From Limnochordia bacterium (lineage in GTDB: Bacteria > Bacillota > Limnochordia > Darwinibacteriales > DTU012): DNA of 64,000 bases. The DNA lies in assembly GCA_007116995.1 (NCBI GenBank), contig SKHL01000030.1, forward strand, positions 11,525 through 75,524, read 5' to 3'. A program made the translations under genes and the position numbers. Numbering within the stretch: the stretch's first letter is position 1; each line of letters opens with the position of its first letter. Positions 4,518 through 64,000 of the stretch are shown piece by piece. The notes under the pieces are model-generated. The model saw only the letters and a list, made by a program, of their open reading frames with translations, was not told the DNA's origin and ran no database searches.

Positions 4518-4609
4518 ATCAAAAATCCCCCTTCTAATTTTTTACCCCACTATAATAAATACGGAGAAATGCCCTCAATACTAAGTATTAGGGCACCTCT
4601 TTGTTACTA

Positions 4610-5818
4610 TTAAACCTGATACAGACTCTTAGCTAATTCAATACATTCCTTTAACTCTTCGACCTTTGTATCTTTCAAAACCGTCTTACCGAGATAATGA
4701 CCTTTCTTCAAGTCATACATTAACCGTACGTCATATCTCTTTCCTATATCGTATAAAACAGACTGTTCCACGTCCCGTCTAAATGTAAAGAATACATGAT
4801 ACGCGTTCTCCCTAGGCTTGTAGTCATAGTCTAAGTGAACAATCCAATCTTCAATCCCCTCATGCTTGTGAATCACATGATTGTACACCATATCATCCAT
4901 ATAATCAGCCGCTAGTGTAGACTCTGTGATATCTTCCATAGTAGTCCACCCATACTGTTCATCTAACTTATGTTTCGAGACCATCTTCTTAATTACATCT
5001 TTATCCCGAAGGTCTATTTTAACATACGGCTGACTCAACGCATCCGTACCCGACTTTAATACAGTGTATTTTCTTGTGTTAATAGTAGCCTTAATCAAGT
5101 CTCCCCACTCTTTATCTGTAATACTTTTATCCCCGATATAGTTAATAAACAACTCAATCGAGTAAATCTCATTACTACCATTTAAGATAAGAACCGGATC
5201 CACATGAGCATCTTTCAGACTTTTTTTAAACAAGTCCTCGTATAAAAAGTCACCCAACTCCCGATACAGCCGAGCCTTTTCCCGCTTGTTTTTCGTCTTG
5301 ATTACAGTAGCTTTACTCATAGAAATTTTCTCACCCTCTTCCTCTTTCTTCCCTGTAGTCTGAGTCTTCTTAACAAGTTCCGTATCATCTTTTTTATTAG
5401 TAGCCTTCTTACTTACAGAAACTTGTTGAACCGGACTCTTACTCTGTGTTTTAGTAATAGTTACACCAGAAAAACCCGTAACCTTAGGAGTCCAAGTAGT
5501 ACCGTCTTTATCCGGAATTAAGTTACCAAGAATCTTATTATCCTGGAACTCAGCGTCCACGTCAATGAAAAATCTATTATGTGGTATATTTTTATATTTA
5601 AGTACCCAGTCCTCAAACTTCAGTACCCCCGGAGAAACAATCGAATAATGAGGATACACCAAGTTCGCCTTCATTTTATACTCTTTTTCCATCATTAACT
5701 CAATGTTACCACCGTACTTCTGTGCCTTCTTCTCCATTGTCTTCCAATCAACTTTAACAAGAGTCCACTTCTCGTTAATCTCCTCATGTTCTTCCCTCTT
5801 CTTAATCACAAACTCCAC
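4610..5818 (-). CDS. Hypothetical 402-aa protein with a Lys-rich low-complexity linker (replication accessory or clamp candidate; unassigned)
   Basis: GTG start with RBS GGTGGTGA. Central K/T/E-rich segment. Position upstream of the clamp loader is where gp45-like clamps sit in T4-like phages, but no motif supports that. Confidence 0.5.
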   Translation of the reverse strand: MEFVIKKREEHEEINEKWTLVKVDWKTMEKKAQKYGGNIELMMEKEYKMKANLVYPHYSIVSPGVLKFEDWVLKYKNIPHNRFFIDVDAEFQDNKILGNLIPDKDGTTWTPKVTGFSGVTITKTQSKSPVQQVSVSKKATNKKDDTELVKKTQTTGKKEEEGEKISMSKATVIKTKNKREKARLYRELGDFLYEDLFKKSLKDAHVDPVLILNGSNEIYSIELFINYIGDKSITDKEWGDLIKATINTRKYTVLKSGTDALSQPYVKIDLRDKDVIKKMVSKHKLDEQYGWTTMEDITESTLAADYMDDMVYNHVIHKHEGIEDWIVHLDYDYKPRENAYHVFFTFRRDVEQSVLYDIGKRYDVRLMYDLKKGHYLGKTVLKDTKVEELKECIELAKSLYQV

Positions 5819-5837
5819 AAAATCACCACCAGTTAGA

Positions 5838-6326
5838 TTATGTTAAAACAGACTCTACCTCATCCTTGAATTCTTCAATCAACGTAATAATTTGTTCTTT
5901 GTTTAACCCATCTATCTCATACGACTCCAACGTTCCAGATAAGAACAGACCCAAAAGAGACCTAACAATCGTTCCACGATCTTCATTAACCGCACTCATC
6001 TTCAACATATCAACAAAAAAGTCATCCGATTCATTTATCTGAATCTTCTTCTTGACTCCCTTGTTCTTTATTGACTGTACTTCTTTCTCCTTATCCCTAC
6101 GAGCCTTTTCCCGATCTCGCATAGAATCAGCCGCTCCCCGAGAAAACATTTTTGTATCTGACCGAGAAGCTACCATTGACACATCAGTTACTTCATCTTG
6201 ACGTTCTTCCTCACGATCTACTCCCTCAGAAACATCCATGTTAGGGTTATTCTCTTTTTTCTTCTGTAACTGTTCAAAGATTGACCGACTTGTTTTTTTA
6301 TCCGCTGTTCTCATACTATCTCCCAC
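5838..6326 (-). CDS. Hypothetical protein
   Basis: 162-aa ORF, charged; no domain recognised. Confidence 0.5.
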   Translation of the reverse strand: MGDSMRTADKKTSRSIFEQLQKKKENNPNMDVSEGVDREEERQDEVTDVSMVASRSDTKMFSRGAADSMRDREKARRDKEKEVQSIKNKGVKKKIQINESDDFFVDMLKMSAVNEDRGTIVRSLLGLFLSGTLESYEIDGLNKEQIITLIEEFKDEVESVLT

Positions 6327-6334
6327 CCCGTAAG

Positions 6335-6832
6335 TTATTTAGTTCTTCCAATATCCTCACCCATGACCCGACCTTTTTTTCGACCCTTCCAAGACGGGTA
6401 TGTCAAAACAGACGTAGGCAACTTCTTTCCAGCAAGAGCCCCAGCAAACACAATATCCGCATCCTTCGTCTTACCCTTCCAACGTCTCCGACCCAAGTAA
6501 TCCAAGTCCACCATAACCGGAAGACCCTCCATACCATACTCAACCGCTAAATTCCGTATTGTACGTTCTGAAGTAACTCCCTTATGAGACACAACCAACT
6601 CCGTCAATTTACCCAAAATTTCCTGTTCATCAAAGTACCCATACGCACTTTTCTGTTTACCAGGTATAGAGAAAAGAAAAGCATCTACTTCCGGGTCATA
6701 CATAAGATAGATCTCGACCTCCCGAAGAATTTCTCTCTCTTCCATCTCCTCATTCACATCTCTCTTCTGTAGATCCTCCACGATACTACCCATAACATCT
6801 GAATATCTTGACTTATTTTTATCCACTATCAC
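6335..6832 (-). CDS. Hypothetical protein
   Basis: 165-aa ORF; no domain recognised. Confidence 0.5.
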   Translation of the reverse strand: MIVDKNKSRYSDVMGSIVEDLQKRDVNEEMEEREILREVEIYLMYDPEVDAFLFSIPGKQKSAYGYFDEQEILGKLTELVVSHKGVTSERTIRNLAVEYGMEGLPVMVDLDYLGRRRWKGKTKDADIVFAGALAGKKLPTSVLTYPSWKGRKKGRVMGEDIGRTK

Positions 6833-6881
6833 TGTCTAGTCCCCCTCTACGAAAATATGACCGTAATCTTTCAACACACCA

Positions 6882-7610
6882 CTAGTAATCTCCTAGTGAT
6901 ACCATAGTAAGAGAAATCCTCACTTTATCCGCTATATTCATGATACTGTTAGAGTACTTACTGATAACCATACCACTCTTCCTTACATTTCCGATCCCCC
7001 AAAAATACGCTGTAAAAGCTGTGTGATCCGAAGAAAAGATATCCCGTAACCATGCAAAATAAGCGAATCCTAAATGTAAGTTCTTGATAGGGTCTGTAAG
7101 TGTCTTCTCTCCATACCACTCAATACCCATCCACTTATTAACCTCTCGACCAGTAGGAATCAATATCTGAGTAAGACCATAAGCCCCTTTCGAACTAACC
7201 ACCCGTATTCTCCATGTAGATTCTTGTTTAACCCAAGAGTACATAACCACAGGATCATATCCGTAATAATCCGTCAAATAGAAAAAAACCTCCACAATCT
7301 CCTCAACCAACTCACTACAAATTCTACTATTATTTCTATAGAGATCCGTACGAATCCGATCCATGAGTAATAGTTCTATATTTTTTTCTGTTACAGACTC
7401 TACAACCCTCAGATCAGACTCACTCTCCCTACTTATATATAAAGTACCAGAAGAAATAGAATCACTATCACTATCTTTTTGACTACCCACATCACCCGCC
7501 ACCAAAACACGTTCATCAACTGTATTATAAGTTCTGTACGATCCAAACACAACAAAACCAAACAAAGTAAGCGAAGTAACTAGTATAATCAAAATATTTT
7601 TCCTACTCAT
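6882..7610 (-). CDS. Membrane-anchored lytic transglycosylase (SLT domain)
   Basis: N-terminal TM helix ILIILVTSLTLFGFVVF. SLT catalytic signature ...WVKQESTWRIRVVSSKGAYGLTQIL... (E-S...S-x-x-G-A-x-G-L-x-Q). TAG stop verified at 6882-6884. Confidence 0.75.
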   Translation of the reverse strand: MSRKNILIILVTSLTLFGFVVFGSYRTYNTVDERVLVAGDVGSQKDSDSDSISSGTLYISRESESDLRVVESVTEKNIELLLMDRIRTDLYRNNSRICSELVEEIVEVFFYLTDYYGYDPVVMYSWVKQESTWRIRVVSSKGAYGLTQILIPTGREVNKWMGIEWYGEKTLTDPIKNLHLGFAYFAWLRDIFSSDHTAFTAYFWGIGNVRKSGMVISKYSNSIMNIADKVRISLTMVSLGDY

Positions 7611-7630
7611 GACAACACCCCCTCCTACTA

Positions 7631-7650
7631 TATATACGGTGAAAAGTAAG
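7631..7650 (-). promoter_or_regulatory. CCGTATATA-class motif (candidate phage middle/late promoter) upstream of the lytic transglycosylase gene
   Basis: Coding strand CTTTTCACCGTATATATAG about 25 nt before ATG 7610; directly after hairpin GCGGAG-GAAA-CTCCGC plus T-run. Confidence 0.5.
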
Positions 7651-7654
7651 AAAA

Positions 7655-9364: not shown

Positions 9365-9988
9365 CTAAACCTTCAATTCCATAGGTAAGAAAAATAGTTC
9401 CGGTCTATCCTTCGGATTTTTAGTCCCATAATTAGATGAAAAATATTTAGGTAGTATGAGTGGGTCTGTGAATATCCGATCCTCTAAACCATGTCTTTCC
9501 ACGTAAACAGTGTACGATCTCATACCATATGTCCCCACAACACCCGCAACCGTAGACCCATCCTCTCTCAAACAAAATAACGGCAAAACGCTCTTCCTAC
9601 CACTAAAGAATGAATCAAATTCCTTGTTAACACTATTCGCTACAGATTTAGGGTCTGGTTTGTACACCTTAACAGCCTGAATTATCTTATCTTTAGTATC
9701 CTCATCATCTATTTTATTGTTGAGAGTAAAACTGAAATCACAATCTTCATGTTTAAAGTCAAATGAAGAACTAGATACGTCCATGTAAATAAAACTAAAC
9801 TTTTTCCCCATATAAAACTTCACTGAGTTATGTCCTGGAACAAATTTAATAGGCATCGTAAGGGTTCCTTCCGGACTCGTACCTACCTTAACCTTCACCC
9901 TCCACACCGTCCACTTTCCTGTTGAAGGCTTATTAAAAAATGTATTCAAAGTCTTAGTGAACATAGACAATGTTTTCTTGTTAATCAC
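9365..9988 (-). CDS. Paralog family member 2 (unknown function)
   Basis: MINKKTLSMFTKTLNTFFNK... N-terminus and the F-I/S-Y-I/M-D-L/V-S/T-G-S segment are shared with neighbours. Confidence 0.6.
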   Translation of the reverse strand: MINKKTLSMFTKTLNTFFNKPSTGKWTVWRVKVKVGTSPEGTLTMPIKFVPGHNSVKFYMGKKFSFIYMDVSSSSFDFKHEDCDFSFTLNNKIDDEDTKDKIIQAVKVYKPDPKSVANSVNKEFDSFFSGRKSVLPLFCLREDGSTVAGVVGTYGMRSYTVYVERHGLEDRIFTDPLILPKYFSSNYGTKNPKDRPELFFLPMELKV

Positions 9989-10007
9989 TTAAAAGTCACC
10001 ACCTAGT

Positions 10008-13409: not shown

Positions 13410-13847
13410 CTACAACAACGATAATTCTGAGAAAAATAAGAATCTACAAGACACTACATGAGACTCCAACTGATTTATCTGTTCTTCAACCAGATTAATA
13501 AACACAGACTCCCCCGTATGTCTAAAAAACTCTACCTCCTCTTCTCCCGCATTTTCCTCCATTAAAATGTAGCACGCTTCGTCAACAGCCGCAAACATAA
13601 TCTCAAACCCACTAACACTCCCTGTCACATTACACACAATACTCCGAAACAAATCACCAATCTGAAACATGACCTCAACAGTATGCCTACTCTTAGTTAC
13701 CCTCTGAAGATTATATACCTCTGTAGTATAATACGGTAAAACCCACCCAGTCTCGAAACTATCCCCTCCAATATCCCTCATTGACCAACAACTTCTACAA
13801 AATTCAATCTTTTTTTCGCCTGTATCTCCACAACGAACACACGCCAC
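13410..13847 (-). CDS. Hypothetical protein (N-terminal CxxC...CxxC)
   Basis: 145-aa ORF, GTG start with strong RBS AAGGGAGGTAGGGGG; preceded by CCGTAT motif and hairpin 13902-13929. Confidence 0.5.
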   Translation of the reverse strand: MACVRCGDTGEKKIEFCRSCWSMRDIGGDSFETGWVLPYYTTEVYNLQRVTKSRHTVEVMFQIGDLFRSIVCNVTGSVSGFEIMFAAVDEACYILMEENAGEEEVEFFRHTGESVFINLVEEQINQLESHVVSCRFLFFSELSLL

Positions 13848-13901
13848 AAAACCACCCCCTACCTCCCTTTTACCTTTATATATAATAATACGGTATTAAA
13901 A

Positions 13902-15053: not shown

Positions 15054-15353
15054 TTATTTAAAAATAGTTGGAATATTTGTCTTCCACTCACTAAAGTCTG
15101 AGTCCGGATTCACCATAGTATACGTGATAGTTACTGTATACAAGATACTCCTATCAATTATAATATGAGAAAGTGATAAGTCAATCAAACTTACCACATA
15201 CGCATCTACCCTCTGCTGTAAAAAGTCATTCACTTTCTCTATTAATCCATCTAAATTAGACTCAGAATTACCATCCAAAGGCTGACTTTCCTGTATAATC
15301 TCAACTAGAACCCCTGTCACCCGACACACCCCCCGCACTCCAGCACATACCAC
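15054..15353 (-). CDS. Hypothetical protein
   Basis: 99-aa ORF; no domain. Confidence 0.4.
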   Translation of the reverse strand: MVCAGVRGVCRVTGVLVEIIQESQPLDGNSESNLDGLIEKVNDFLQQRVDAYVVSLIDLSLSHIIIDRSILYTVTITYTMVNPDSDFSEWKTNIPTIFK

Positions 15354-15694
15354 TCCGAAAAACTTAAAACATCACAGTCAATTAAATCTTCAGTATCTCC
15401 ACATAAGAAACCTAGTAAATACTTCCGATACAAATTATACGAATCAGCTAGTTCCACTAAAAAATCACCATGACACGCACTAGGGCTACACCAGCATCCC
15501 AACACCTTACCCTCTAACTCCTGTATAGAATCCATTAACTCATCCTGACCAAGTACCCAAACTTTATACTTTTCAATGACCTGATCCCGAGTACCATGAA
15601 CACCAATCGAAAACGGATTACCCCACTTAGACGGTCTCCCTATATACACATCATACTTCGACTTTTTAAAATGAACGACTCTATCCATACACAA
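15317..15694 (-). CDS. DUF4326-like small protein
   Basis: YDVYIGRPSKWGNPF...KVLGCWCSPSACHGDFL matches, from memory, the conserved blocks of the DUF4326 family found in phages and bacteria (G-R-P-x-x-W-G-N-P-F and G-C-W-C-x-P-x-x-C-H-G-D). Confidence 0.5.
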   Translation of the reverse strand: MCMDRVVHFKKSKYDVYIGRPSKWGNPFSIGVHGTRDQVIEKYKVWVLGQDELMDSIQELEGKVLGCWCSPSACHGDFLVELADSYNLYRKYLLGFLCGDTEDLIDCDVLSFSEWYVLECGGCVG

Positions 15695-15741: not shown

Positions 15742-15758
15742 CTTATATACGGAAAAAA
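15742..15758 (-). promoter_or_regulatory. CCGTATATA-class motif upstream of the DUF4326-like gene
   Basis: TTTTTTCCGTATATAAGGG following hairpin AAGTGGTT-GATTTT-AACCACTT. Confidence 0.5.
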
Positions 15759-15778: not shown

Positions 15779-16602
<824 letters not shown>

Positions 16603-16615: not shown

Positions 16616-17362
16616 CTATATATTTGTGATAGACTCCAACCGATACACGAAATAAAACCGAAGACCTTCCGTTAACTCCCCATTCTCATGAAGTTCTTCT
16701 ACAAACTCCACAAGATCAGAAAACTCTTCAACATCCCGTAACACCAACAACCGATCTACTACTTTAGAAATACCGTCTTTTGGATTACTCTCTACAGGAA
16801 ACTTCGTTCTAGGCTGAGGATTCACAGACACCTCCGCCCACTCCTCTTCTCTCCTCACTGTCTCCAGAATATTTTTATCTACTTCAAAATACGGATCAAT
16901 CCCCAACTCCGTCGCCTCAGAAATGTAGTCCACCAAAGGCTTACCAAACGTCGCCTCCAACCCACCCCGTAATGCCTCGATAAATCTCGGACCAGACCCG
17001 TAATTCTCCTTACAATGAAGATTCATTGACCTATGATGAATTACTAGTGTATTGTTTTCGTTCAATATAAACGGATAAATCATACAGATAATCGGCTTAT
17101 CCTCCATTGAAAACAGACAACCCTTTTCCATATCCAAGAAGTCACACATCCCGTTCTTACCAGCACGAGGCGGATAATACGACTGACTATGACAACACTT
17201 ACCACCACAAATCGTCTTAATCCCCTCTAGTGTACAGTTAAAACACCGATTCACCCACTTACTACTAACCTTCCATAACGTTACATCCCGATCCAGACCC
17301 ATATTTAATACCTCATTAATAAGATAGATAATTTCCTTCCGAAAAGACGTTTCTACATTCAA
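16616..17362 (-). CDS. YkgJ-family putative Zn/Fe-chelating (CxxCxxCC) protein
   Basis: CFNCTLEGIKTICGGKCCH ... CDFL...GC...KPIICMIYPF matches the YkgJ/FliB family (PF03692-like) Cys pattern. Confidence 0.5.
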   Translation of the reverse strand: MNVETSFRKEIIYLINEVLNMGLDRDVTLWKVSSKWVNRCFNCTLEGIKTICGGKCCHSQSYYPPRAGKNGMCDFLDMEKGCLFSMEDKPIICMIYPFILNENNTLVIHHRSMNLHCKENYGSGPRFIEALRGGLEATFGKPLVDYISEATELGIDPYFEVDKNILETVRREEEWAEVSVNPQPRTKFPVESNPKDGISKVVDRLLVLRDVEEFSDLVEFVEELHENGELTEGLRFYFVYRLESITNI

Positions 17363-19156: not shown

Positions 19157-19507
19157 TTAGATAGATAACCTAATAGACACATTAACCTTACTATCATCGT
19201 CTCGACTATCTAAAAACCCGATCAGCCCTAAAATCTCTTCAGACAAGTTTTTAGCAGTATATTCTCCACTAAGAGTAATATTCAGACCCCTAGCCAACCC
19301 TCCCGTTTCAGTATCCACCGTTAGAACAGTCCTATTTTCATCTGTATCTACTACACCTCTTTTTTCTTTATCTCTGTCTTTTTTTCTTTGTTGCCAATCA
19401 TTCTTCATATAATTTACACCCCGGTCAAGACCCAAAACAACTTCACCGTTCAATTTTTTAGGTATATCAATAGGACGTTTCTTTGCTACCACAGTTCTCG
19501 ACCCCAT
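19157..19507 (-). CDS. Hypothetical protein
   Basis: 116-aa ORF; no domain. Confidence 0.45.
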   Translation of the reverse strand: MGSRTVVAKKRPIDIPKKLNGEVVLGLDRGVNYMKNDWQQRKKDRDKEKRGVVDTDENRTVLTVDTETGGLARGLNITLSGEYTAKNLSEEILGLIGFLDSRDDDSKVNVSIRLSI

Positions 19508-19601
19508 TTCTAAACCTACCCTACTACTCCCCTAATCCTTTATACGGAATTCCCACCAAAAAAAGAAGTGAATTAACCACTTTAGAAAAAAATTTCATCT
19601 A

Positions 19602-23498: not shown

Positions 23499-23531
23499 AA
23501 TACAAAACTCCTCTCTAATTTATTAATACGG

Positions 23532-24056
23532 CTAATTTTTCCCTTTGTACCCTATCAGTTCTTCTATCTGTTTTCGAGTCTTCTCATGTAAGACCATTTT
23601 ATTCTTATTTACCTCATACCACTCCAACGTATTCGGAGTCCCCTGAGCCTTCCCCGCACCTCTCCAGTCCGCAACCATTTCCAAAACATACTTTCGAGGC
23701 ATCTCCACCGCCACCAGTTCTTTTTCCGTTATGTTACCAGAACTATCTACCTTAACGTCCGGCACAATCCAGTACTGCCAATGATGTTTATTTCTCGACT
23801 GATGAAAAAACCATGCCCGATCAAAGTCTTTATTACCCGTATCCGTCGCTTTGTAATACCCCGTCTTATCTCTAATAATTCTCTTACTACCGTCCTTATT
23901 ATTAAAGAAATGAGCATAGGGTACTAGTTCAGAAGGTAGTAATTTACTCCAGTCATGAATCAATCCCCTAAACGGAATACCTAATCTACAACACTCAACA
24001 AATACATACCACTTATGAATCAACACATAGTACAGATATCCTATATACCTTCTCAA
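23532..24056 (-). CDS. Conserved phage protein with H-D-W-S-K and HH-W-Q-Y-W motifs (possible metal-dependent hydrolase)
   Basis: 174 aa with LIHDWSKLLP and FFHQSRNKHHWQYW. The pattern is reminiscent of a phage DUF family, but I cannot name it securely. Confidence 0.4.
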   Translation of the reverse strand: MRRYIGYLYYVLIHKWYVFVECCRLGIPFRGLIHDWSKLLPSELVPYAHFFNNKDGSKRIIRDKTGYYKATDTGNKDFDRAWFFHQSRNKHHWQYWIVPDVKVDSSGNITEKELVAVEMPRKYVLEMVADWRGAGKAQGTPNTLEWYEVNKNKMVLHEKTRKQIEELIGYKGKN

Positions 24057-25626: not shown

Positions 25627-25643
25627 ATCTATACGGAAAAAAG
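25627..25643 (-). promoter_or_regulatory. CCGTATA-class motif upstream of the DNA methyltransferase gene
   Basis: TTTTTTCCGTATAGATAAG 27 nt before ATG 25598; hairpin 25641-25665. Confidence 0.5.
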
Positions 25644-26196: not shown

Positions 26197-27441
26197 TTAC
26201 TCAGAATCAACGTATAGAACTGACTTAAACGAATCCGATACCACTCCGATACCGTCTTTATTTAAGATCAATCCAACCATCGAATCCTGAGAAAATACCT
26301 TCAGTAACGAACGAAGTAAGTTCGACTGAATAGATACGTCACCATTCAACACTTTCGGAGAATCGTTAGGCGCACCCATAAGTACCATGTTAATATCTTT
26401 TCTCTTATCCTTCTTCTTAATCGACGCAGAAATAAATCCATCCTCTGTATAATTAAAGAAGATCCGAGAAATACTTCCATTCACCGTGTTTGACGCATGA
26501 TCTGCAGCCTTCGCTAACTGTGCGTAGTTCACATATACCGGAGAATTCGATTTAATAAGAGTATCTACTGAGTCCAACATAGTCTTCGGAGGAGCATAAT
26601 CCGCAACACCCACACTGTACACAAAATCTTTCGTAGATAAGAAGATTCGATTCTCCTGTCTGTGTACGTCAATCTCTTTCGACTCACTACCACTCGTTAA
26701 AACATAGAGAATCTGAACATCTTTAATACTCAGATCCATCTTAGGGAACTTCTCCCCATCAAACATCGCCACACTAATCAAATAAATCGACATAGCACCC
26801 TTATCAGAAAAGAAAATTCTCCTCTGAGACGGTGTGACACCCGAGTTAGCTAACGGATACAGGTTTTTTAGAACCTGAAAGAATGTATTTGAAGTTAGAC
26901 TACCCAGAGACTCCTTTTCCCCATCTACACTAAACTCTAACTGATCCTCCTGTACGTCAACAATATCAACCTCCGCATCTCCACCCATAACCTTTAAGAA
27001 ATACGAACCATCTTTCTTATACAGTGTAAATGAAGATCCACATAATTTTACCAGCTCACTAATGACCGGCAAACTAATAGGGATAAAGTCCTCTAGTACA
27101 TTACTAGAATTAAGTAGTGTAATCGCCTTCTCAACATAGATATCCACGTCCGTAATCGTAACCCATAACTGATTCCCTTTCACCTTTAGACCAATAGTCC
27201 TCGCAACAACATCACGACCCGAACCCTTAGACACCACATTCGCGACCTTTAAAATATCCGATATTTTCTTCGTAGGAACACGAATATGTTCCTCATCAAT
27301 CACAACCTCTTCTTTACCAGAAAAAGAAATATCATCTTCTTCCGTATCTTCGTCTGAATCTGTTAGACCTAAAAGATCGTCTAATGTTGTGTCCTGATCC
27401 AGATCTTCCCTCTCAAAATCTTTTTCGTTGACTTCTGACAT
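26197..27441 (-). CDS. Hypothetical 414-aa protein with acidic N-terminal tail (sliding-clamp-like candidate; weak)
   Basis: N-terminal 45 aa are D/E-rich. The remaining roughly 370 aa have an alternating beta-strand-like pattern and a length compatible with a DnaN-type clamp, but no diagnostic motif. Preceded by a CCGTATA motif at 27482-27497. Confidence 0.45.
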   Translation of the reverse strand: MSEVNEKDFEREDLDQDTTLDDLLGLTDSDEDTEEDDISFSGKEEVVIDEEHIRVPTKKISDILKVANVVSKGSGRDVVARTIGLKVKGNQLWVTITDVDIYVEKAITLLNSSNVLEDFIPISLPVISELVKLCGSSFTLYKKDGSYFLKVMGGDAEVDIVDVQEDQLEFSVDGEKESLGSLTSNTFFQVLKNLYPLANSGVTPSQRRIFFSDKGAMSIYLISVAMFDGEKFPKMDLSIKDVQILYVLTSGSESKEIDVHRQENRIFLSTKDFVYSVGVADYAPPKTMLDSVDTLIKSNSPVYVNYAQLAKAADHASNTVNGSISRIFFNYTEDGFISASIKKKDKRKDINMVLMGAPNDSPKVLNGDVSIQSNLLRSLLKVFSQDSMVGLILNKDGIGVVSDSFKSVLYVDSE

Positions 27442-27561
27442 ATAATTACCCTCTCTCCTCTTAAATTACACTCTTCCTATCTCTATACGGAAAAACTACC
27501 AGTAAATGAACTATTTTCCATATAACCTAATAGTCATTATATCAGTAGCTCTTTCCACACT

Positions 27562-28848: not shown

Positions 28849-28872
28849 CCTATATATACGGGAAATATATAC
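28849..28872 (-). promoter_or_regulatory. CCGTATATATAGG motif upstream of def
   Basis: GTATATATTTCCCGTATATATAGG 13 nt before ATG of def; preceded by hairpin 28879-28903 plus T7. Confidence 0.5.
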
Positions 28873-28878: not shown

Positions 28879-28903
28879 AGAGACATTTCAAAAAGAAATG
28901 TCT
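28879..28903 (-). terminator. Rho-independent terminator closing the ORF-less unit upstream of def
   Basis: 9-bp stem GAGACATTT/AAATGTCTC, loop CTTTTTG, then TTTTTTT. Confidence 0.6.
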
Positions 28904-29244
28904 CCCTTATAAAGTGTATAGGTAGAACCATTACTTATAAAGCACGTTCACTTATTGTCTACTTGGCTACTTCATCTATACTCCCGGCTGTTCATGTATT
29001 GTTGTCCGGCTGATCATTTCCACCCGAAGTATCTGGCTGACTTCGATCATTCTATTTTGTTACCAGACTTATCAGCTAAGTACCTTTTCCTAAGATAGGT
29101 ACAACACCCCAGTACCCTTCGTGACTTTTCACCTACCATAAACTTTCAGACACCTATACGAAAAAACCTATTCGGTAGTCTTTAACTACCCGAGAACATT
29201 GTTCTCACTCCTTTAATATGATTTTATTGTCAAACTAATTAGTA

Positions 29245-30987: not shown

Positions 30988-31007
30988 CTATATACGGAAA
31001 AAATACC
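30988..31007 (-). promoter_or_regulatory. CCGTATATAG motif upstream of gene 30138-30881
   Basis: GGTATTTTTTCCGTATATAGATG. Confidence 0.45.
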
Positions 31008-32358: not shown

Positions 32359-32375
32359 CCTATATACGGAAAAAC
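32359..32375 (-). promoter_or_regulatory. CCGTATATAGG motif upstream of the NDT-like gene
   Basis: GTTTTTCCGTATATAGGATTATAG; small hairpin ACGGATC/GATCCGT just upstream. Confidence 0.45.
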
Positions 32376-33227: not shown

Positions 33228-33446
33228 AACCCCTCTCTATGTTATATACGGACACTAATCCAATAGTTTTAAATTAGGTTCAAACTCTACTATATACGTC
33301 TTACCACACTCACGACAATGTAAAAACAAAATGAATGTGTTATCATCTACTTTCTGCGTCTCTCCCGCACAATCTAAATTCGTATCACAAGAACAGAACA
33401 TTGACGTTTCATACACCACCCCTATATCTCCCCTCACATTTAACGA

Positions 33447-35723: not shown

Positions 35724-36080
35724 TTAATATACGGACAATCTAACCGTTCCTGAAGTATAACTTCCGAGTCTGATTATAAAACTACGTGATTGATTTCTAC
35801 GAGTATACGTCTCAATCTTAAACGTATAGACCTCTCTAGAACTTCTCGAATCAACAATAAATGTCAGTGTATCCACCCAGCCACCATGAACAAAGTACCC
35901 ATCAATCACCAGTTCATTATGTCTGTTCACATAGTAGTCTGTTACCCGATACACCGAATTACTAGGGTATTCATACTCTACGTCAATATAGACCGTAGTT
36001 ATATGATTCATATTACAACCTGTCAACGTGATCATCAACATAAGAATTAAAATAGAAATACAAAATCTGCTCATACCCAT
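35724..36080 (-). CDS. Predicted lipoprotein (signal peptide plus lipobox LTGC)
   Basis: MSRFCISILILMLMITLTGC: hydrophobic signal with lipobox L-T-G-C. Confidence 0.55.
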   Translation of the reverse strand: MGMSRFCISILILMLMITLTGCNMNHITTVYIDVEYEYPSNSVYRVTDYYVNRHNELVIDGYFVHGGWVDTLTFIVDSRSSREVYTFKIETYTRRNQSRSFIIRLGSYTSGTVRLSVY

Positions 36081-38536: not shown

Positions 38537-38576
38537 CCGAATCTCTCCTCTCTAATCTATACGGAGAAACAATAAC

Positions 38577-41644: not shown

Positions 41645-41823
41645 CTCAAAAGTAAATTCAGTAACATATATAATCTATACGAAAAAAGAGAGAACCAAGT
41701 ACGTCCTCCCTCCATCTGAAGCGATCCGGTTCCACTTCACAGACCACCCCAGGAACATTCCACCTCAGACTCACTTTTGAGTCTTTTGAAACTAACACCT
41801 GATCGTCCAAAACACCAACCCCT

Positions 41824-45872: not shown

Positions 45873-45893
45873 CCACTATATACGGAAAAAGAG
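45873..45893 (-). promoter_or_regulatory. CCGTATATAG motif after the terminator of gene 45913-46158
   Basis: CTCTTTTTCCGTATATAGTGG after hairpin 45890-45912. Confidence 0.45.
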
Positions 45894-47620: not shown

Positions 47621-47980
47621 CTAGTAATTCCTTCTGATACTAATAGAATCAACAGACTCAATAATCTCATTGACCTTATTACTTATCGAAGTAGCCGAAT
47701 ACATTATCTCAGAGAACTTCTCCTTAATTATTTCCTTCGCTCTCTCCTCAATGTACTCCGATAAATCTTTCCCCAAACCCTCAAAAAACTCTACAGGATC
47801 TACTTCGTTCCCCGCTATTGTAAGAGATATAGGAACTTCCTTTCCACCACTATCATGAATCATCTTAAAATAATCACTAAAAATATCCTCCCGAGAATCT
47901 AAAAAATGACCCACTATCATTCGAACCCAGTCACTTCTCATATAAGACTCATACGATACTGTATCTTTACTATCTCCCAT
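47621..47980 (-). CDS. Hypothetical protein
   Basis: 119-aa ORF preceded by the CCGTATGTAACAG motif. Confidence 0.45.
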   Translation of the reverse strand: MGDSKDTVSYESYMRSDWVRMIVGHFLDSREDIFSDYFKMIHDSGGKEVPISLTIAGNEVDPVEFFEGLGKDLSEYIEERAKEIIKEKFSEIMYSATSISNKVNEIIESVDSISIRRNY

Positions 47981-48003: not shown

Positions 48004-48615
48004 TTATCTCACTGTTACATACGGAGAAATTCTGTCTTTCAGAGATTGATCAATTTCACCTAAATCAATAATCACCTTATACGATTCATCCTCTTGAAGT
48101 TCTTTGACCTTTACCATCCCTAACTCACTTAATATAGTCCTAAATACGTCATCCCACTTCCAAACACCAGAATTCGAACCTATCAAGTTTCTCAGAATTC
48201 GATACCCGTCTAACCCTACTTCCTCACACGTACTACAAAGGGCTGAGAATATATCCTCCTCTAGAATACTATCAATATTTTCTAACCCAAAAACCTTACC
48301 CATAATTTTCTTCAGACACTTCTCTAACTGCCAATCCTCAGATCGACTATAATGTCCGTATCTACCCTTCGCAAATAAAATAAAATGTCTTATTTCATCC
48401 ATCAACCAATTCTCCTCTCTAATAACCCTAACACCATTTTCTATACTTAGTTTATAATAAGAACCCCTCTGAATAATTAACCCATTCTCCCTCAAACGAG
48501 CTAAGCCCCTCCGAACTTCTTTTAAAGTCCAACCCGTATCCTCTAGTACATCCTCTTCCGTAAACCACCCAGTCCTAGAAAAAATAGACTGAAACAGTCT
48601 TTGATTTTTTCTCAA
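48004..48615 (-). CDS. Winged-helix DNA-binding protein
   Basis: The N-terminus GWTLKEVRRGLARLRENGLIIQRGSYYKL is a typical wHTH (MarR/DprA-C-like). Confidence 0.45.
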   Translation of the reverse strand: MRKNQRLFQSIFSRTGWFTEEDVLEDTGWTLKEVRRGLARLRENGLIIQRGSYYKLSIENGVRVIREENWLMDEIRHFILFAKGRYGHYSRSEDWQLEKCLKKIMGKVFGLENIDSILEEDIFSALCSTCEEVGLDGYRILRNLIGSNSGVWKWDDVFRTILSELGMVKVKELQEDESYKVIIDLGEIDQSLKDRISPYVTVR

Positions 48616-51293: not shown

Positions 51294-51686
51294 TTACCAC
51301 TCATAATTACGAATTTGTACGGGACCATCTTTAGTTTCCTCTTTCCATCTCTCTTTAAGAAACCTCTCTACTCTCAAGTAATCAAAAAACCCAAAAGTCA
51401 TACCGACCCCATCAAACATAAAAATCGAAGCGTGAACCTGTGATAGCGGATAATCCTCCCCAAAAAAAGAATTGGAGTATCTGTTTTTGACTTTCCATTC
51501 TCTACTCTCAAACTCCCTTATAAATATCTCAAACGTACCCCGACCAGACTTCTCCGAGTTGTTATTCACCGCCTCAAAGTGAAATCTCCAACTCCCCACT
51601 ACTAAAAAAACTTGTATCACTACTAGTAAGAGTACTATACACAAAACCAGAAATGCACCGTACAATACCGGACCCCAATCTAACAC
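51294..51686 (-). CDS. Membrane-anchored hypothetical protein
   Basis: N-terminal TM YGAFLVLCIVLLLVVIQVFLVV. Confidence 0.45.
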   Translation of the reverse strand: MLDWGPVLYGAFLVLCIVLLLVVIQVFLVVGSWRFHFEAVNNNSEKSGRGTFEIFIREFESREWKVKNRYSNSFFGEDYPLSQVHASIFMFDGVGMTFGFFDYLRVERFLKERWKEETKDGPVQIRNYEW

Positions 51687-51707
51687 CTCAACACCTCAAC
51701 ACCTCCC

Positions 51708-51725
51708 ACCTCTATATACGGAGAA
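51708..51725 (-). promoter_or_regulatory. CCGTATATAGAGG motif upstream of gene 51294-51686
   Basis: CTTTTCTCCGTATATAGAGG after hairpin 51732-51755. Confidence 0.45.
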
Positions 51726-51753
51726 AAGAAAAGACACTCCAAGCTAAGAGTGT

Positions 51754-52719
51754 CTACGAGATAAATGATTCTTTGAAGTACCTGAGTAAGAGATTCTTCA
51801 CTTTAGGGTCTAACCCTTCATCATTCTTCACACTGTCATAGATAGAATCCGACTTTTTACCAGACTCCATAGATATCCGACTCACCAAGTCCGACATAAT
51901 ACTCGATAAGTCTTTTTTAACCTTTTTCTGGTTCTTCGCATGACTACTCATAATCTTATCCGCATCCATACACGGAATATCATACGTCTCCCAGTTATCC
52001 CTGTGATAGTAATTCACGTTAAATAAAGCATAAAATCGAGGAGTCTGAAAGAAGTTATAGTCATGAGACGTACCCCGAGTCAACGAACCCGGTCTCACAA
52101 TATCCGTACGACCCTCTCTTACAATAGGGTATTGTACATGATCGTGACCTAGTACAATCGAGTCATAACCCAAATCCGATACATCCTCAAAACTAATATT
52201 CGCCTCATCATGATCGTTCTGATAAAACCTATGAGCACAAAGAATGTTCACAGACGCCTTACTATTTCCCCTCACTAATTCATCTGTATAATCCAGACCC
52301 GTAATCAATGTCTTTTTGTTAATCACAATCCGTCTACCCACATGAATATGTTTAATCACACCAAAATTAAAGAGAATAGATAACGGAGACTTCTCAAGAG
52401 TATCAATCGTATTCCGAGACAAGTCATGATTCCCTACGATAGAATAGACCTCAATACCCTTCTCCTTAAACGACTGAAACGTCTTACCTACCTTATTGAT
52501 TAACTCATTCGGCATCGCGATTTTATTAAATACATCACCCAATAACATCAAATGAGTTACGTTATTCTCAACACAGATATCCCGAACACTCACTAACTTC
52601 TTTAAGACCGTAGACGAGTAATCATCAATCCGACTCGTTGGCTGAGCAGAATCCGCATGTATATCTCCAAGAAATCCAAAACCCTCCGTCTCTTTCATCT
52701 CAATCTGAATGACTTCCAA
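51754..52719 (-). CDS. Mre11/SbcD-family recombination nuclease (T4 gp47-like)
   Basis: Phosphoesterase motifs I GDIHAD, II LLGDVFN, III VGNHD, IV LCAHRF, V LGHDH. ATG with RBS after the CCGTATATAAATTAGAGAGGGG block. Confidence 0.8.
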   Translation of the reverse strand: MEVIQIEMKETEGFGFLGDIHADSAQPTSRIDDYSSTVLKKLVSVRDICVENNVTHLMLLGDVFNKIAMPNELINKVGKTFQSFKEKGIEVYSIVGNHDLSRNTIDTLEKSPLSILFNFGVIKHIHVGRRIVINKKTLITGLDYTDELVRGNSKASVNILCAHRFYQNDHDEANISFEDVSDLGYDSIVLGHDHVQYPIVREGRTDIVRPGSLTRGTSHDYNFFQTPRFYALFNVNYYHRDNWETYDIPCMDADKIMSSHAKNQKKVKKDLSSIMSDLVSRISMESGKKSDSIYDSVKNDEGLDPKVKNLLLRYFKESFIS

Positions 52720-52734: not shown

Positions 52735-53034
52735 CTAATTTATATACGGAGAAACTTCCCACGAAATACGAGACGCCCATTTAATCGCATCTTTTTTGTG
52801 TTTCAATATAATCAAGACAGAATCCCCAGAAAGAATACCTACTTTTTCCAATCTATCCATATCCTCATTTAACTGGAACGCCTCTTTATTATACTGATCT
52901 TTTTTCCATGTATCCTCAAGATAGTCCCGAACCATAACAAGACTACTCAACCACGCCCTAGCGGCTACCTTTTCAAACTTATACTTCTTTCCCTTCTCAA
53001 ACTGAGTACTTTCCGAAATCTTTTCTCTATCCAC
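52735..53034 (-). CDS. Hypothetical protein
   Basis: 99 aa. Confidence 0.4.
   Translation of the reverse strand: MDREKISESTQFEKGKKYKFEKVAARAWLSSLVMVRDYLEDTWKKDQYNKEAFQLNEDMDRLEKVGILSGDSVLIILKHKKDAIKWASRISWEVSPYIN
52741..52760 (-). promoter_or_regulatory. CCGTATATAAATTAGAGAGGGG promoter plus RBS block upstream of the Mre11-like gene
   Basis: GTTTCTCCGTATATAAATTAGAGAGGGG, then ATG 52719. Confidence 0.5.
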
Positions 53035-53310: not shown

Positions 53311-53538
53311 TTACCTCCCTCTCAATTTCCTACCTAGTAACGTAAAACCCACCCAAATCATGAATCCAGTAGCCGAGTAAATCACCATACATATAACCAC
53401 CAGTAAAGTGATATTAAAACACTGTTCCGCAGTCAGATAGTCACGATAAAGTAAGTAAACCGTGATAGTAGTCAACACCTGTAAAATAACAAGACCAAAA
53501 ATCTCCTTACTCCAGATACTCCTTAGATATTCCCTCAC
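53311..53538 (-). CDS. Small membrane protein
   Basis: 75 aa, two hydrophobic helices. Confidence 0.4.
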   Translation of the reverse strand: MREYLRSIWSKEIFGLVILQVLTTITVYLLYRDYLTAEQCFNITLLVVICMVIYSATGFMIWVGFTLLGRKLRGR

Positions 53539-53939
53539 CGTAACTCCTTCCTAACTCTCATTAACAACTTACCCAGTCTATTCTCCCCTACCCCATTACA
53601 CTGACCCCAGTATGTATCTCCCCAATAATTATCTTCAACAATTTCTATGTCTCCTGTTTTAAGTAATAGATCCCTTAATTTTTCATTACCAAATTTCTGT
53701 TTCAAAAGAAGATACATAATGTCCTCTTTTACTTCTTCCCAATCTTCCCTTAAAACCAACTTACGACCCAATCTCTTACAGTGACCCGGAGTAGAACTCC
53801 GAAACTGATACCATAAAGACTTATCTTTTGTCTTTGAACACTGATACGCATTTTCTACTGTAGGAAATACGTACCCACAAATACATACCTCACTAGGGTA
53901 GAAGTTGGATAGAAAATTATACTCGTCTCTGAAATACAT
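53535..53939 (-). CDS. NADAR-domain protein (YbiA/DUF1768-like N-glycosidase / ADP-ribose-processing fold)
   Basis: FYPSEVCICGYVFPTVENAYQCSKT...PGHCKRLGRKLVLREDWEEVKEDIMYLLLKQKFGNEKLRDLLLKTGDIEIVEDNYWGDTYWGQCNGVGENRLGKLLMRVR follows the NADAR block order (FSNF.P, E+.+Q.K, P...K.LGR, R.DW...K...M......KF, L..TG...LVE, WG.G..G.G.N.LG..LM..R). Confidence 0.7.
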   Translation of the reverse strand: MYFRDEYNFLSNFYPSEVCICGYVFPTVENAYQCSKTKDKSLWYQFRSSTPGHCKRLGRKLVLREDWEEVKEDIMYLLLKQKFGNEKLRDLLLKTGDIEIVEDNYWGDTYWGQCNGVGENRLGKLLMRVRKELR

Positions 53940-53970: not shown

Positions 53971-53990
53971 CTACCTATACGGAAAAAAGA
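53971..53990 (-). promoter_or_regulatory. CCGTATAGG motif upstream of the NADAR gene
   Basis: CTTTTTTCCGTATAGGTAGG about 30 nt before ATG 53939; after hairpin 53989-54012. Confidence 0.45.
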
Positions 53991-57636: not shown

Positions 57637-58113
57637 TCACCAATCCTCCATAAGAACACTACCTTCCATATTCTTCTCCATAATTAAATTCTCATAGTCT
57701 ATCACCCACTCTAGGGTGTATACCGTAATACCCAGTAATTTATCCAATCCTTCTATCTTATGATACGACCTAAAATAGTTCTTAACCCAATCCAAGTTCT
57801 CCTGTAGATCCTGTCTGTTACCAATATAATGAGAATTTACAGGAACCGTCTTCATACTCTCATAGTCACAAAACGCATCAATAATCGGAACATATTTAAC
57901 ATAGTGTAACACTCCAGAATAACCTTTTAAATTTACGTCCTCTAGAACCGTATCGTCTTGAGTATTACCCCATAACCGATTCTGATATTTCAACGCCTTT
58001 TTAAGCGAATAAACAGCTACCTGTACCAATTCCTTTATATCCGGTCTCTTCTTACCCAACTCCATGAAATCTGAATTAACGACCCAAGCTAGATCATTTT
58101 CAAAATCCCTCAT
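57637..58113 (-). CDS. Protein ending ...GSVLMEDW (W-tail family)
   Basis: 158 aa; begins MRDFEND; preceded by the CCCGTATATAGG motif at 58140-58158. Confidence 0.5.
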   Translation of the reverse strand: MRDFENDLAWVVNSDFMELGKKRPDIKELVQVAVYSLKKALKYQNRLWGNTQDDTVLEDVNLKGYSGVLHYVKYVPIIDAFCDYESMKTVPVNSHYIGNRQDLQENLDWVKNYFRSYHKIEGLDKLLGITVYTLEWVIDYENLIMEKNMEGSVLMEDW

Positions 58114-58139: not shown

Positions 58140-58158
58140 ATAGTCCTATATACGGGAA
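58140..58158 (-). promoter_or_regulatory. CCCGTATATAGG motif upstream of the W-tail gene run
   Basis: CTTTTCCCGTATATAGGACTATGG about 30 nt before ATG 58113. Confidence 0.45.
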
Positions 58159-58213
58159 AAGTAACCTAAAGAGAAGGCTACTTTAAATCTTTATACTATG
58201 TTACTATTTTCTA

Positions 58214-61080: not shown

Positions 61081-61099
61081 GTATCATCACCCTATCCAT

Positions 61100-62021: not shown

Positions 62022-62041
62022 AATAGATTCCCCTTTCTCAC

Positions 62042-62374: not shown

Positions 62375-62394
62375 TAAATAACACCCCTATCTAA

Positions 62395-62595: not shown

Positions 62596-62711
62596 CTACA
62601 TATCCCCTTACCGCTTATTTTTTAATGTCATTAACCCTCCATCCTTAAGAAATTCCCGTAACATCCAAACTTTACCCGTAAATTTGAAGATAATGATATT
62701 CTTTTTTTCAC

Positions 62712-62942
62712 TCATGAAATCAAACTCCGTAATTCTTTCTTCACGAGACCCGACTCCATCACATACTCCGGATACTTCTTTTCCTTACACTTTTGATAAC
62801 AAACCTCAATAGCAGGAATTTTATCCTCCTTCTTAAGATCCTTTATATTACTATACGGACAATTATCCAAACAGCACTCCCCTAAACCTGTTTTAAACAT
62901 AATTCCACACGGTAATTTACTCAAATTAAATCCCCCTCCCAT
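62712..62942 (-). CDS. Small Cys-rich protein
   Basis: 76 aa. Confidence 0.4.
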   Translation of the reverse strand: MGGGFNLSKLPCGIMFKTGLGECCLDNCPYSNIKDLKKEDKIPAIEVCYQKCKEKKYPEYVMESGLVKKELRSLIS

Positions 62943-63130
62943 TCTACTTCAAAATCTTATCCATATAACATTCCGTGATATAGACCTCAACACTAACCTT
63001 CACCTTATCCGGTTTTTTGTACTCCAATAAATATTTGATAAAATTTTCAGCCGACTGATAATACGGGCACTCCTTTGTCATGATACAACTATCACACTGA
63101 TCCATCATATCCACAGAAAGTAACCTCCCC

Positions 63131-63565
63131 CTACACCACCACACTCTTACTCCAAAAACCCGGCAATTTATCGTACTCTTTTATATTCTTATCCATATAC
63201 TTCTGATACCGAATCGTACCATACTTGTCCAATCTCTCTTTCCTATGTTCTACGATATCCTTCATCAAGTCATCCAGATCCGTGATAGGGTAGAAGTCCT
63301 TAACGAACCCTCTCTCCGAAACCTCCCGAGATTTTTCCGTCACACTCGTTAGTAGATTAAACCGATAATCCAGATACGCCTTACCCCTATGATCACTAAT
63401 CCGAATACTGTTCGAGACACCGTAATCCAGTTTCAAATACACACTATTACTCGAATAACTTTCGTACAACTGAACAATGAACCCTTCGTCCTTTAACCGT
63501 TCAATTAACGAAGTACACGCGTTCTTAATCAATGACCTACTCTTTTTCTTCTTAAACCGTACCAC
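63131..63565 (-). CDS. Hypothetical basic protein
   Basis: 144 aa. Confidence 0.45.
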   Translation of the reverse strand: MVRFKKKKSRSLIKNACTSLIERLKDEGFIVQLYESYSSNSVYLKLDYGVSNSIRISDHRGKAYLDYRFNLLTSVTEKSREVSERGFVKDFYPITDLDDLMKDIVEHRKERLDKYGTIRYQKYMDKNIKEYDKLPGFWSKSVVV

Positions 63566-63579
63566 AAATCGACACCCCC

Positions 63580-63846
63580 CTACTCCTCTTTTAAGATAGA
63601 ATTCAACATACTATCAAACACCGAATCACCCGATTCCCCGAACTGTTCCTTAAACTCCCGATACGACTTAAGACACACGACCTTATTACTACTATCTTTT
63701 TCAGACACACCTACAAGACAATCCAAGTTCCCAATAACCAATTCAGTCTGATCACGAGTATCCACTACCCGAACCGTAACACTAGGAGATATCTCCTCCA
63801 AGATAACCCTTCGATACCAAGACCGAATCTTACTCAATATTCTCAT
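63580..63846 (-). CDS. Hypothetical protein
   Basis: 88 aa; ATGA-coupled to the partial upstream ORF. Confidence 0.45.
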   Translation of the reverse strand: MRILSKIRSWYRRVILEEISPSVTVRVVDTRDQTELVIGNLDCLVGVSEKDSSNKVVCLKSYREFKEQFGESGDSVFDSMLNSILKEE

Positions 63847-64000
63847 ACATCTCCCATCCTTATAGGGTATTTATACGGCAAATGAAACTCTTCCCCACAA
63901 GACACACACCGATACTTATGAATAAGCGGACCATAAGTCTCCACTAACTCCAGACACCCGTTACAGTCATTTCCATGTTTCACGTCTAACAGATGATTCC
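63843..64000 (-). CDS. Partial Cys-rich ORF; the N-terminus lies beyond the right edge of the window
   Basis: The minus-strand frame ...KHGNDCNGCLELVETYGPLIHKYRCVSCGEEFHLPYKYPIRMGDV-stop has its TGA overlapping the ATG at 63846. Confidence 0.4.
   Translation of the reverse strand, partial: NHLLDVKHGNDCNGCLELVETYGPLIHKYRCVSCGEEFHLPYKYPIRMGDV

Follow-up and report, generated by a model that had tools for sequence, protein, structure and literature searches.

The window analysed here, a 64,000-nt stretch of DNA that is part of a metagenomic phage contig of 122,512 bp (ENA ERZ27301260 k141_890935), carries a short motif, a T-tract followed by CCGTATA(T/G)A, upstream of at least 20 of its genes. 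With a probability of roughly 0.6, we read this motif as a single-box, -10-like promoter used by the host core RNA polymerase together with a phage-encoded sigma factor of 188 amino acids (aa), the gene of which lies in the same window (2870..3436, - strand). Transcription is predicted to start at the motif, and the 188-aa protein, which contains sigma region 2 only and resembles gp55 of phage T4, is its putative reader. The original prediction had proposed a phage-specific middle or late promoter and had suggested a gp55-like sigma as something to seek. Such a protein was found within the window itself, and the promoter reading is now supported by the strand, placement and spacing of the copies, the absence of a -35 box, conservation in relatives, the gp55-like sigma, and a copy in the structural-gene region.

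Frequency, shape and placement of the motif

All of the ~129 genes in the window lie on the - strand, and intergenic DNA amounts to 7,055 of the 64,000 nt (11%). CCGTATA occurred 28 times, compared with an expectation of 7.1 ± 2.4, and no shuffle reached 28; 22 of the 28 occurrences were on the - (coding) strand. Scored with an iterated position weight matrix (PWM), the coding strand yielded 20 sites above 16 bits and the opposite strand yielded none, in line with the claimed recurrence ahead of at least 20 genes. Above 12 bits, 23 sites were observed versus 0.98 in Markov-1 random sequence. In an unbiased comparison of intergenic with coding 7-mers, TTCCGTA, CCGTATA and TTTTTCC ranked near the top, the remaining top 7-mers being G-rich words of ribosome-binding sites (RBS), terminator T-runs, and words of the sigma70 class such as TATTGAC. 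Fifteen of the 20 PWM sites above 16 bits were intergenic; rather than equal density in coding DNA, which the original prediction had named as contrary evidence, there was thus a ~24-fold intergenic excess. Under the gene model used, five sites fell in coding sequence, but 52749, 48024, 41682 and 35734 lie 30–99 nt before the next start, and the only truly internal site is 24195 (CCGTAAGG, imperfect).

Copies are named here by the position of their first C, and the coordinates given for each span 15 nt. The PWM sites together with exact cores whose T-tract is displaced or degenerate (19547, 13893) make 22 copies, with the degenerate site 23531 as an extra. The consensus is TTTTT(C/T)CCGTATA(T/G)A, and information is restricted to ~14 nt (-5 to +8), with T at -5 to -1 followed by the core. 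No column is conserved between -50 and -12, which bears out the reported lack of a -35 box. In 17 of the 22 copies, the next RBS and start codon follow 24–64 nt after the first C. A hairpin and T-run stand directly upstream of 13, as expected from the claim that over half of the copies directly follow a terminator. The nine hairpin-less copies are nevertheless T-rich from -6 to -1 (e.g. GTTTCT, TTTTTT, GTTTTT), indicating that the T-tract belongs to the element. These copies, and the position of the core past the T-run, led us to reject a terminator component; furthermore, the terminators ahead of the sigma70-type promoters described below carry no CCGTATA core. Hairpins and flanks differ in sequence between copies, which share only the ~14 nt, and the copies are therefore not a dispersed repeat or mobile element.

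The hexamer after CCG is TATATA or TATAGA, the sixth position being A and not T in 77% of copies. Judged by its sequence, it is a poor -10 hexamer for sigmaA, since the T at -7 is mostly wanting, and the motif as a whole lacks the features of a housekeeping sigma70/sigmaA promoter (-35 box, 16–18 nt spacer, TATAAT with T at -7). A scan of IMG/VR with the exact motif gave 105 single matches, which is chance level, and no multi-copy contigs.

The individual copies, all on the - strand, are written below as positions -6 to -1, a slash, and the rest of the 15 nt. Among those that follow a hairpin or terminator, the best is TTTTTT/CCGTATAGA (25628..25642; PWM 30.7), which is terminator-fused and stands 38 nt before the DNA methylase gene 24372-25598. 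TTTTCT/CCGTATATA (51713..51727; PWM 28.5) comes after terminator 51755-51732 and precedes gene 51294-51686 by 35 nt; between this copy (51721) and the GTG start of the gene lies a short tandem repeat, GGTGTTGAGGTGTTGAGGTG (51687-51720, -). GTTTTT/CCGTATATA (32361..32375; PWM 26.7) lies after a hairpin, 44 nt before gene 31918-32325, and TTTTTT/CCGTATATA (15744..15758; PWM 26.0) is fused to a terminator with a hairpin of -13.8 kcal/mol, 64 nt before gene 15317-15688. TTTTTT/CCGTATAGG (53974..53988; PWM 25.9) is fused to terminator 54013-53988, 43 nt before gene 53535-53939; CTTTTT/CCGTATATA (45877..45891; PWM 25.7), after terminator 45914-45890, stands at the head of a 282-nt gap; and CTTTTC/CCGTATATA (58147..58161; PWM 25.1) follows a hairpin of -10.8 kcal/mol, 42 nt before gene 57637-58113. 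TATTTC/CCGTATATA (28853..28867; PWM 22.9), after terminator 28908-28876, and TTTTCA/CCGTATATA (7631..7645; PWM 22.1), after terminator 7675-7650, precede the peptide deformylase gene 28389-28835 by 26 nt and the SLT transglycosylase gene 6882-7610 by 29 nt, respectively. Variants likewise placed after terminators are ATTTCT/CCGTATTTATTATAG (4556..4570; PWM 21.8), 47 nt before the gene string clamp loader–sigma–two genes–terminase–portal; CTTTTT/TCGTATAGA (41674..41688; PWM 20.8; terminator 41713-41685), 50 nt before gene 40889-41632; and TTAATA/CCGTATTATTATATATA (13885..13899), upstream of the DUF4326 gene 13410-13847. The exact CCGTATA of GGAATT/CCGTATAAA (19539..19553), 55 nt before gene 19157-19492, has its hairpin and T-run 10 nt farther upstream.

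Hairpin-less copies include TTTTTT/CCGTATATA (30989..31003; PWM 26.3), 116 nt before gene 30138-30881; GTTTCT/CCGTATATA (52741..52755; PWM 25.4), 30 nt before gene 51754-52719; and GTTTCT/CCGTATAGA (38556..38570; PWM 25.3), 28 nt before gene 38075-38536. The copy at 52749 runs into AAATTAGAGAGGGG, a translation-initiation block that recurs in intergenic regions; the described contiguity of several copies with this block was seen at 52749, 38564 and 33251. The last of these, TAGTGT/CCGTATATA (33243..33257; PWM 17.8), lies 24 nt before a 47-aa open reading frame (ORF) with a strong RBS, and GTTTTT/CCGTATAGA (27482..27496; PWM 21.7) lies 49 nt before the sliding-clamp gene 26197-27441. Two copies had already been placed on upstream genes in the original prediction, and both placements held: CATTTG/CCGTATAAA (63870..63884; PWM 17.4), 32 nt before gene 63580-63846, is the copy reported at 63866 (63866-63878) and falls within the 3'-terminal part of the gene upstream (L002), and GATTGT/CCGTATATT (35726..35740; PWM 21.5), reported at 35741, is on the last codons of gene 35724-36074 and 99 nt before gene 35297-35635. 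The variant ATTTCT/CCGTATGTA (48016..48030; PWM 20.5) also overlaps the final codons of the gene upstream and precedes gene 47621-47980 by 44 nt. A weaker copy, GTTTTT/TCGTATAGG (29153..29167; PWM 13.6), heads a conserved non-coding stretch of ~270 nt (alignment with L016/L017), and the degenerate AATTAG/CCGTATTAA (23523..23537) is located 33 nt before the helicase gene 22350-23498. One more copy was found directly upstream of the window, at L002:330.

The window start carries the N-terminus of the large terminase, and the parent contig was read 11.5 kb past this point (L128); ~78 kb were covered altogether. The L128 genes are tightly packed and encode the terminase (679 aa) and portal (579 aa), followed by proteins of 137, 183, 483, 572, 421, 195, 307 and >797 aa. 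Terminase and portal genes come without a promoter-sized gap, in one unbroken string that runs from copy 4564 and includes the sigma gene. The 572-aa gene is preceded at 37 nt by a copy, TTATTTTCCGTATAGATAG (L128:14174), which is shared with the 80% relative (L127:6433). The 572-aa protein had no match in Pfam, PHROG or PDB, and its gene is therefore not callable as a capsid gene. No sigma70-type promoter was found in the L128 late stretch. The gap before the 483-aa gene opens with ATATATATAGAG (L128:12640-12673), and that of the relative contains ATATATATATAAAG (L127:4920-4979); both are TATA-rich and have no CCG, and the ATATATATAGAG string could be a degenerate motif site or a different late signal. 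From the distribution of its copies, the putative promoter serves the region of replication and metabolism genes as well as that of morphogenesis, the latter at least in part.

Conservation and drift in related phages

L016 is a 21-kb piece of a relative with 70–84% (about 75%) DNA identity. Seven intergenic copies of the motif were found in it, 26–51 nt before starts and without exception on the coding strand. Six to seven orthologous junctions keep the core; in pairwise alignment, T-tract and CCGTATA are retained at those corresponding to 38564 (L016:2102), 32369 (L016:5975), 28861 (L016:9116), 27490 (L016:9954), 25636 (L016:11943) and 19547 (L016:18508), with flanks full of substitutions and indels. 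The hairpin upstream of the methylase gene has undergone compensatory changes between the window and L016, from GAGGGGCT...AGCTCCTC to GAGAGGCT...AGCCTCTC. At the helicase junction, L016 has a good copy (14827, CCGTATATAG) as opposed to the degenerate copy of the window, and five window copies have no L016 counterpart; for putative promoters, such losses and gains are ordinary turnover.

The clamp-loader copy (4564) is kept in L012. Cognates occur in much more distant relatives, in which clamp or sigma is only 38–48% identical. They stand before the clamp loader in L011 (TTTTTTCGTATTATATAATATAG, short form TTTTTTCGTAT) and L003 (TTCTTACGTATTCTG, short form TTACGTAT), and L020 has AATTTTACGTATAATA at seven intergenic places, including upstream of clamp, methylase, SbcC-like and RecA-like genes, and also has sigma70-type promoters of its own. 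L018 has AWTACGTATTAnATAGT at five places, one of them before its clamp gene. In L020, CGTAT was 11-fold overrepresented between genes (p=1e-4), and in L018 5-fold (p=5e-3). In L019, CGTAT is missing between genes, where TTGTATAAT recurs in its place (e.g. 5771-5877, 9931-10000, 16108-16207, 16720-16763), which suggests that promoter specificity has switched within the clade. No clear cognate motif was found in the IMG/VR relatives L013 and L015 (sigma 42–46% identical), which offer too few intergenic gaps. Because cognate motifs stand upstream of orthologous genes even in distant relatives, a T/A-rich tract with nCGTAT(A/T) is, on this comparative evidence, an old and evolving signal of the clade ahead of the same kinds of genes. 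A helicase-based search of IMG/VR found no relatives, and a portal-alignment scan of GTDB genomes gave no match.

The sigma-like protein and candidate readers of the motif

A Pfam scan of the whole proteome detected a single sigma-type protein, encoded at 2870-3436 (Sigma70_r2, 27.5 bits versus a cut-off of 24). Its gene starts 25 nt downstream of the clamp-loader gene (3462..4517, -; Pfam DNA_pol3_delta2 and AAA), which belongs to the same string and would be co-transcribed with it. The protein family comprises 191 representative clusters of 170–200 aa and is essentially metagenomic; 78 of 100 members match region 2 and only 1–2 match region 4. PHROG labels in the family read 'RNA polymerase sigma factor', with 1 of 100 members touching the T4 gp55 family. 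With the window protein itself as query, PHROGs gave no match, nor did tblastn of the protein and the family consensus against 50,697 phage records. An AF2 model based on a 100-sequence alignment (predicted local distance difference test, pLDDT, 89) consists of two helical domains (residues 1–88 and 110–187) and a flexible linker. The best structural match of this predicted fold is T4 gp55, and the N-terminal domain superposes on region 2 of sigmaE of the extracytoplasmic function (ECF) type (4lup, 2.3 Å over 76 residues).

All relatives keep the order clamp loader–sigma–two small genes–large terminase–T4-type portal. The first small gene (128 aa; 2511..2897, -) shares 28 nt with the 3' end of the sigma gene and holds the same syntenic position in every relative (145 aa in L003). 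Its product had no match in Pfam, PHROG or PDB and, purely by analogy, is a candidate for a gp33-like co-activator; a sequence-based search of the two genes that follow the sigma gene turned up no gp33 analogue. The sliding clamp (414 aa; 26197..27441, -; phrog_947 DNA polymerase processivity factor, 4e-9) is a possible activator like T4 gp45.

A second promoter class is clearly separate from the motif, as the original prediction had held, and was picked out by an independent consensus scan. Seven near-identical units GTATTGACTTGTATAGTTTTGTATGGTATACT, rather than the six counted before, are textbook sigma70/sigmaA promoters in which 17 nt separate TTGACT from a TG-extended TATACT or TATAAT; they lie at 54931-54903, 42341-42313, 40612-40584, 39526-39498, 33758-33730, 26136-26108 and 8732-8704 on the - strand, where the scan found exactly these seven TG-extended matches, each coming after a terminator. 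Six of the seven are near-identical over ~45–60 nt (GTATTGACTTGTATAGTTTTGTATGGTATACTTAAAGTGG). The unit contains three GTAT-type repeats, often with (A)CG(G)TAT directly ahead of the -35 box, and the spacer string TTGTATAG resembles both the motif core and the TTGTATAAT of L019. Conservation reaching far past the hexamers suggests an extra function or recent copying. After both promoter classes and the RBS were masked, no third specific motif was found in the intergenic DNA of the window.

The combination of a single -10-like box with a phage sigma that lacks region 4 is most likely of an already known kind, represented by T4 late, phiEco32 gp36 and Kayvirus late promoters. T4 gp55 consists of a sigmaR2-homology domain with a helix-loop-helix, a linker and a clamp-binding motif, and the promoter that it recognises is a lone -10-like element lacking a -35 (PMC7892883). 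The window motif is likewise a single -10-like element without a conserved -35, and its proposed reader is gp55-like, with region 2 and no region 4. However, the motif does not match the T4 late consensus TATAAATA, sharing only TATA with it, CCG has no T4 counterpart, and many replication and nucleotide-metabolism genes are also preceded by the motif. Sequence similarity between gp55 and the window sigma was undetectable, apart from the one family member in 100 that touches the gp55 PHROG. Of the T4 late components (gp55, gp33 and the gp45 clamp), clamp and clamp loader are present here, and neither a gp33 homologue nor a clamp-binding motif was identified.

phiEco32 gp36 promoters (tAATGTAtA) start transcription 6–8 nt downstream and serve middle and late genes; they share with the motif a single conserved element containing GTATA and a sigma without region 4 (PMC8948821). 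phiEco32 is, in contrast, a podovirus of E. coli from an unrelated lineage, homology of the sigmas was not detected, and the motifs are unlike in their upstream part. Staphylococcus Kayvirus combines strong sigma70-type early promoters with a long -10-only class attributed to a phage sigma; most of its 12 late promoters (TGTTATATTA) belong to the structural module, both classes act on some units, and junctions of terminator and promoter occur (PMC7698491). The Kayvirus consensus is different, ~24 copies are spread across the non-structural region here, and no sigma homology was detected by tblastn. The sigmaW consensus of Bacillus subtilis, TGAAAC-N16-CGTATA as quoted from DBTBS (bioRxiv 10.1101/2021.05.28.446236), has a -10 identical to the motif core. 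Unlike such ECF systems, however, the motif has no -35 GAAAC box, and the sigma has no recognisable region 4 and is phage-encoded, not controlled by an anti-sigma. A -10 of the sigmaD/sigma28 type (GCCGATAT) was rejected because its register is off by one base and there is no TAAA -35. Particular to the clade of the window phage are the sequence of the motif with its T-tract/CCG extension, the way in which copies are systematically fused to terminators, and their distribution across non-structural genes.

The motif is the only phage-specific promoter-like signal in ~78 kb, which favours it as the cognate site of the only phage sigma. Several points weigh against this pairing. It is based on co-occurrence only, and alternatively the motif might be read by something else and the sigma kept for another, late-only class. 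The sigma gene itself is placed behind a motif copy and two terminators, with the nearest sigma70-type promoter 4–5 kb upstream; first expression from behind its own putative promoter would thus need read-through. Moreover, the hexamer of L020 is a perfect TATAAT, which keeps alive a model of host sigmaA with a phage appropriator. In that model, which we regard as possible but unlikely, the sigmaA holoenzyme would be remodelled by a phage factor, as by T4 AsiA/MotA or Thermus phage P23-45 gp39; TATA(T/G)A would be the -10, T-tract and CCG would replace the -35 contact, and the gp55-like sigma would serve another late-only class. The core does contain a TATA-type hexamer suitably far from start codons, but in 77% of copies A replaces T at the equivalent of -7, a position nearly invariant for sigmaA, and the most informative bases are CCG and not a TGn extension. 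The position of the sigma gene behind a motif copy would fit a cascade with the late sigma produced from a middle promoter, yet no third motif for such a sigma was found in the 64 kb, nor by eye in the gaps of the further 11.5 kb. The GTATA string (TGGTATACT) in the sigma70-type promoters of the phage, and the replacement of the motif by TTGTATAAT in L019, also agree with appropriation; an appropriator homologue was not detected, such proteins being small and hard to detect.

Two further readings have less in their favour. Short conserved promoters ending in TATAG resemble the ends of T7/SP6-type promoters, and this ending would suit a phage-encoded RNA polymerase, either single-subunit (T7-like) or multisubunit (AR9/phiKZ type), specified elsewhere in the genome; the informative part of the motif, ~13 nt, is nevertheless shorter than T7-type promoters. 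Although ~45 kb of the contig lie outside the DNA read, no such domain was found in the ~129 window proteins, the 8 ORFs past the portal or the Pfam matches of L128, and the strong sigma70-type promoters and the sigma factor imply reliance on the host core RNA polymerase. The best matches of the helicase are the jumbo phages AR9/PBS1, but the similarity to AR9 amounts to just 40% and does not go beyond a helicase of the widespread Dda type, and we consider a phage polymerase very improbable. It is improbable, too, that the motif has a role other than that of a promoter, either as a terminator-associated or RNA-level signal (processing, translational regulation) or as a DNA-level site (nicking, methylation, operator). 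Over half of the copies touch a terminator T-run and several abut the RBS block, but the nine hairpin-less copies keep T-tract and core, and terminators ahead of sigma70-type promoters do without the core. Strand specificity cannot separate DNA-level from RNA-level readings, since all genes are on one strand. An RNA element past the termination point would, however, be missing from terminated transcripts, the distance to the RBS varies by 12–50 nt, which is untypical of a translational operator, and there is no dyad symmetry of the repressor-site kind. The -10-like composition and the co-occurrence of a sigma without a -35-reading domain also argue for a promoter.

If the phage sigma is the reader, the host sigmaA holoenzyme would fire the seven sigma70-type promoters early, and read-through of leaky terminators would reach the clamp-loader/sigma operon. 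Later, the gp55-like sigma would take the place of sigmaA on the core RNA polymerase. Its region-2 domain would read CGTATA as sigma2 domains read -10 elements, with the T-tract and CC as an upstream extension; as region 2 alone would read the core, a -35 box would not be needed. The start would be expected ~6–8 nt downstream of TATA(T/G)A, as at the single-box promoters of T4, phiEco32 and Kayvirus, and at the shortest motif-to-start distances (24–30 nt) the Shine-Dalgarno sequence would fall just inside the transcript. Copy 4564, ahead of the sigma operon, would provide positive feedback, primed by upstream read-through. Because nearly every unit ends in an intrinsic terminator, its T-run and the promoter T-tract may have merged into compact junctions. 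It is doubtful, though conceivable, that nearly all post-early transcription, and not late genes alone, is driven by the gp55-like sigma, with the replication genes and the sigma gene itself among the targets, from terminator-fused promoters with the U-tract as an essential upstream element. Were this true, the regulatory logic would be other than the three-tier cascade of T4, and if the sigma were also coupled to the clamp, as in T4, replication and almost all transcription of the phage would each depend on the other.

The proposed pairing would give a large uncultured phage clade a concrete promoter-sigma pair, with which transcription units and timing classes could be annotated in metagenomic genomes, and it would add to the region-4-less phage sigmas and single-box promoters known from T4, phiEco32 and the Kayviruses. 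The drift of the core (CCGTATA, ACGTATAAT, ACGTATTA) beside sigmas 40–83% identical would offer a natural series for the co-evolution of -10 element and region 2. If the pair is orthogonal, the terminator-promoter junction might serve as an insulating part in synthetic biology.

Genome, clade and further features

Recognised replication and repair genes in the window are those for the clamp loader, sliding clamp, Dda-type helicase, Mre11-like nuclease, SSB, RNase H and a primase-type Toprim protein; other recognised genes encode thymidine kinase, dUTPase, peptide deformylase, DNA methylase, SLT lysozyme and two tRNAs. Megablast of 20 kb gave no DNA-level match to deposited phages. The portal search found >140 related portal clusters on contigs of up to 210 kb, with no isolate among the deposits. 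The host of the phage is probably a Gram-positive bacterium, and the clade, one of deep, uncultured phages with T4-type portals and genomes of ~120–210 kb, probably has Gram-positive anaerobes as hosts. The phage and its ~80%-identical relative were found together in samples ERZ27301260 and SRR7083930 (L001, L002, L012, L016, L017, L127, L128), and L019, a third and more distant relative, likewise comes from ERZ27301260.

The window has a GC content of 39.5%, with an extreme skew of the coding strand (28% G versus 11% C). The one-strand run extends over ~140 consecutive genes and at least 78 kb (window and L128), at a GC skew of about -0.4 to -0.5. Strand asymmetry is common to the relatives, and the coding strand of L018 has only 7.9% C.

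Rfam detected two tRNAs and nothing else in the entire window. An ORF-less stretch of ~270 nt (~28880-29150, -), between copy 29161 and terminator 28908-28876, is kept in blocks (AATAAGTGAACGTGCTTTATA, GGTTCTACCTATAC) in the 80% relative (L016:8800-9090; L017) and had no Rfam match; lying beside the tRNA pair, it is a candidate for a novel phage non-coding RNA.

G-runs of 7–9 mark ribosome-binding regions (e.g. window 53950, 61295, 34110), and GGGGGGG was counted 14 times between genes and never within coding DNA. In relatives, the clamp-loader, large terminase and portal genes contain inteins that bear LAGLIDADG or HNH domains, for example in L003-L009 (clamp loader 820 aa; terminase ~1565 aa) and in several portal homologues; the versions of the window phage are intein-free (clamp loader 351 aa, terminase 679 aa, portal 579 aa).

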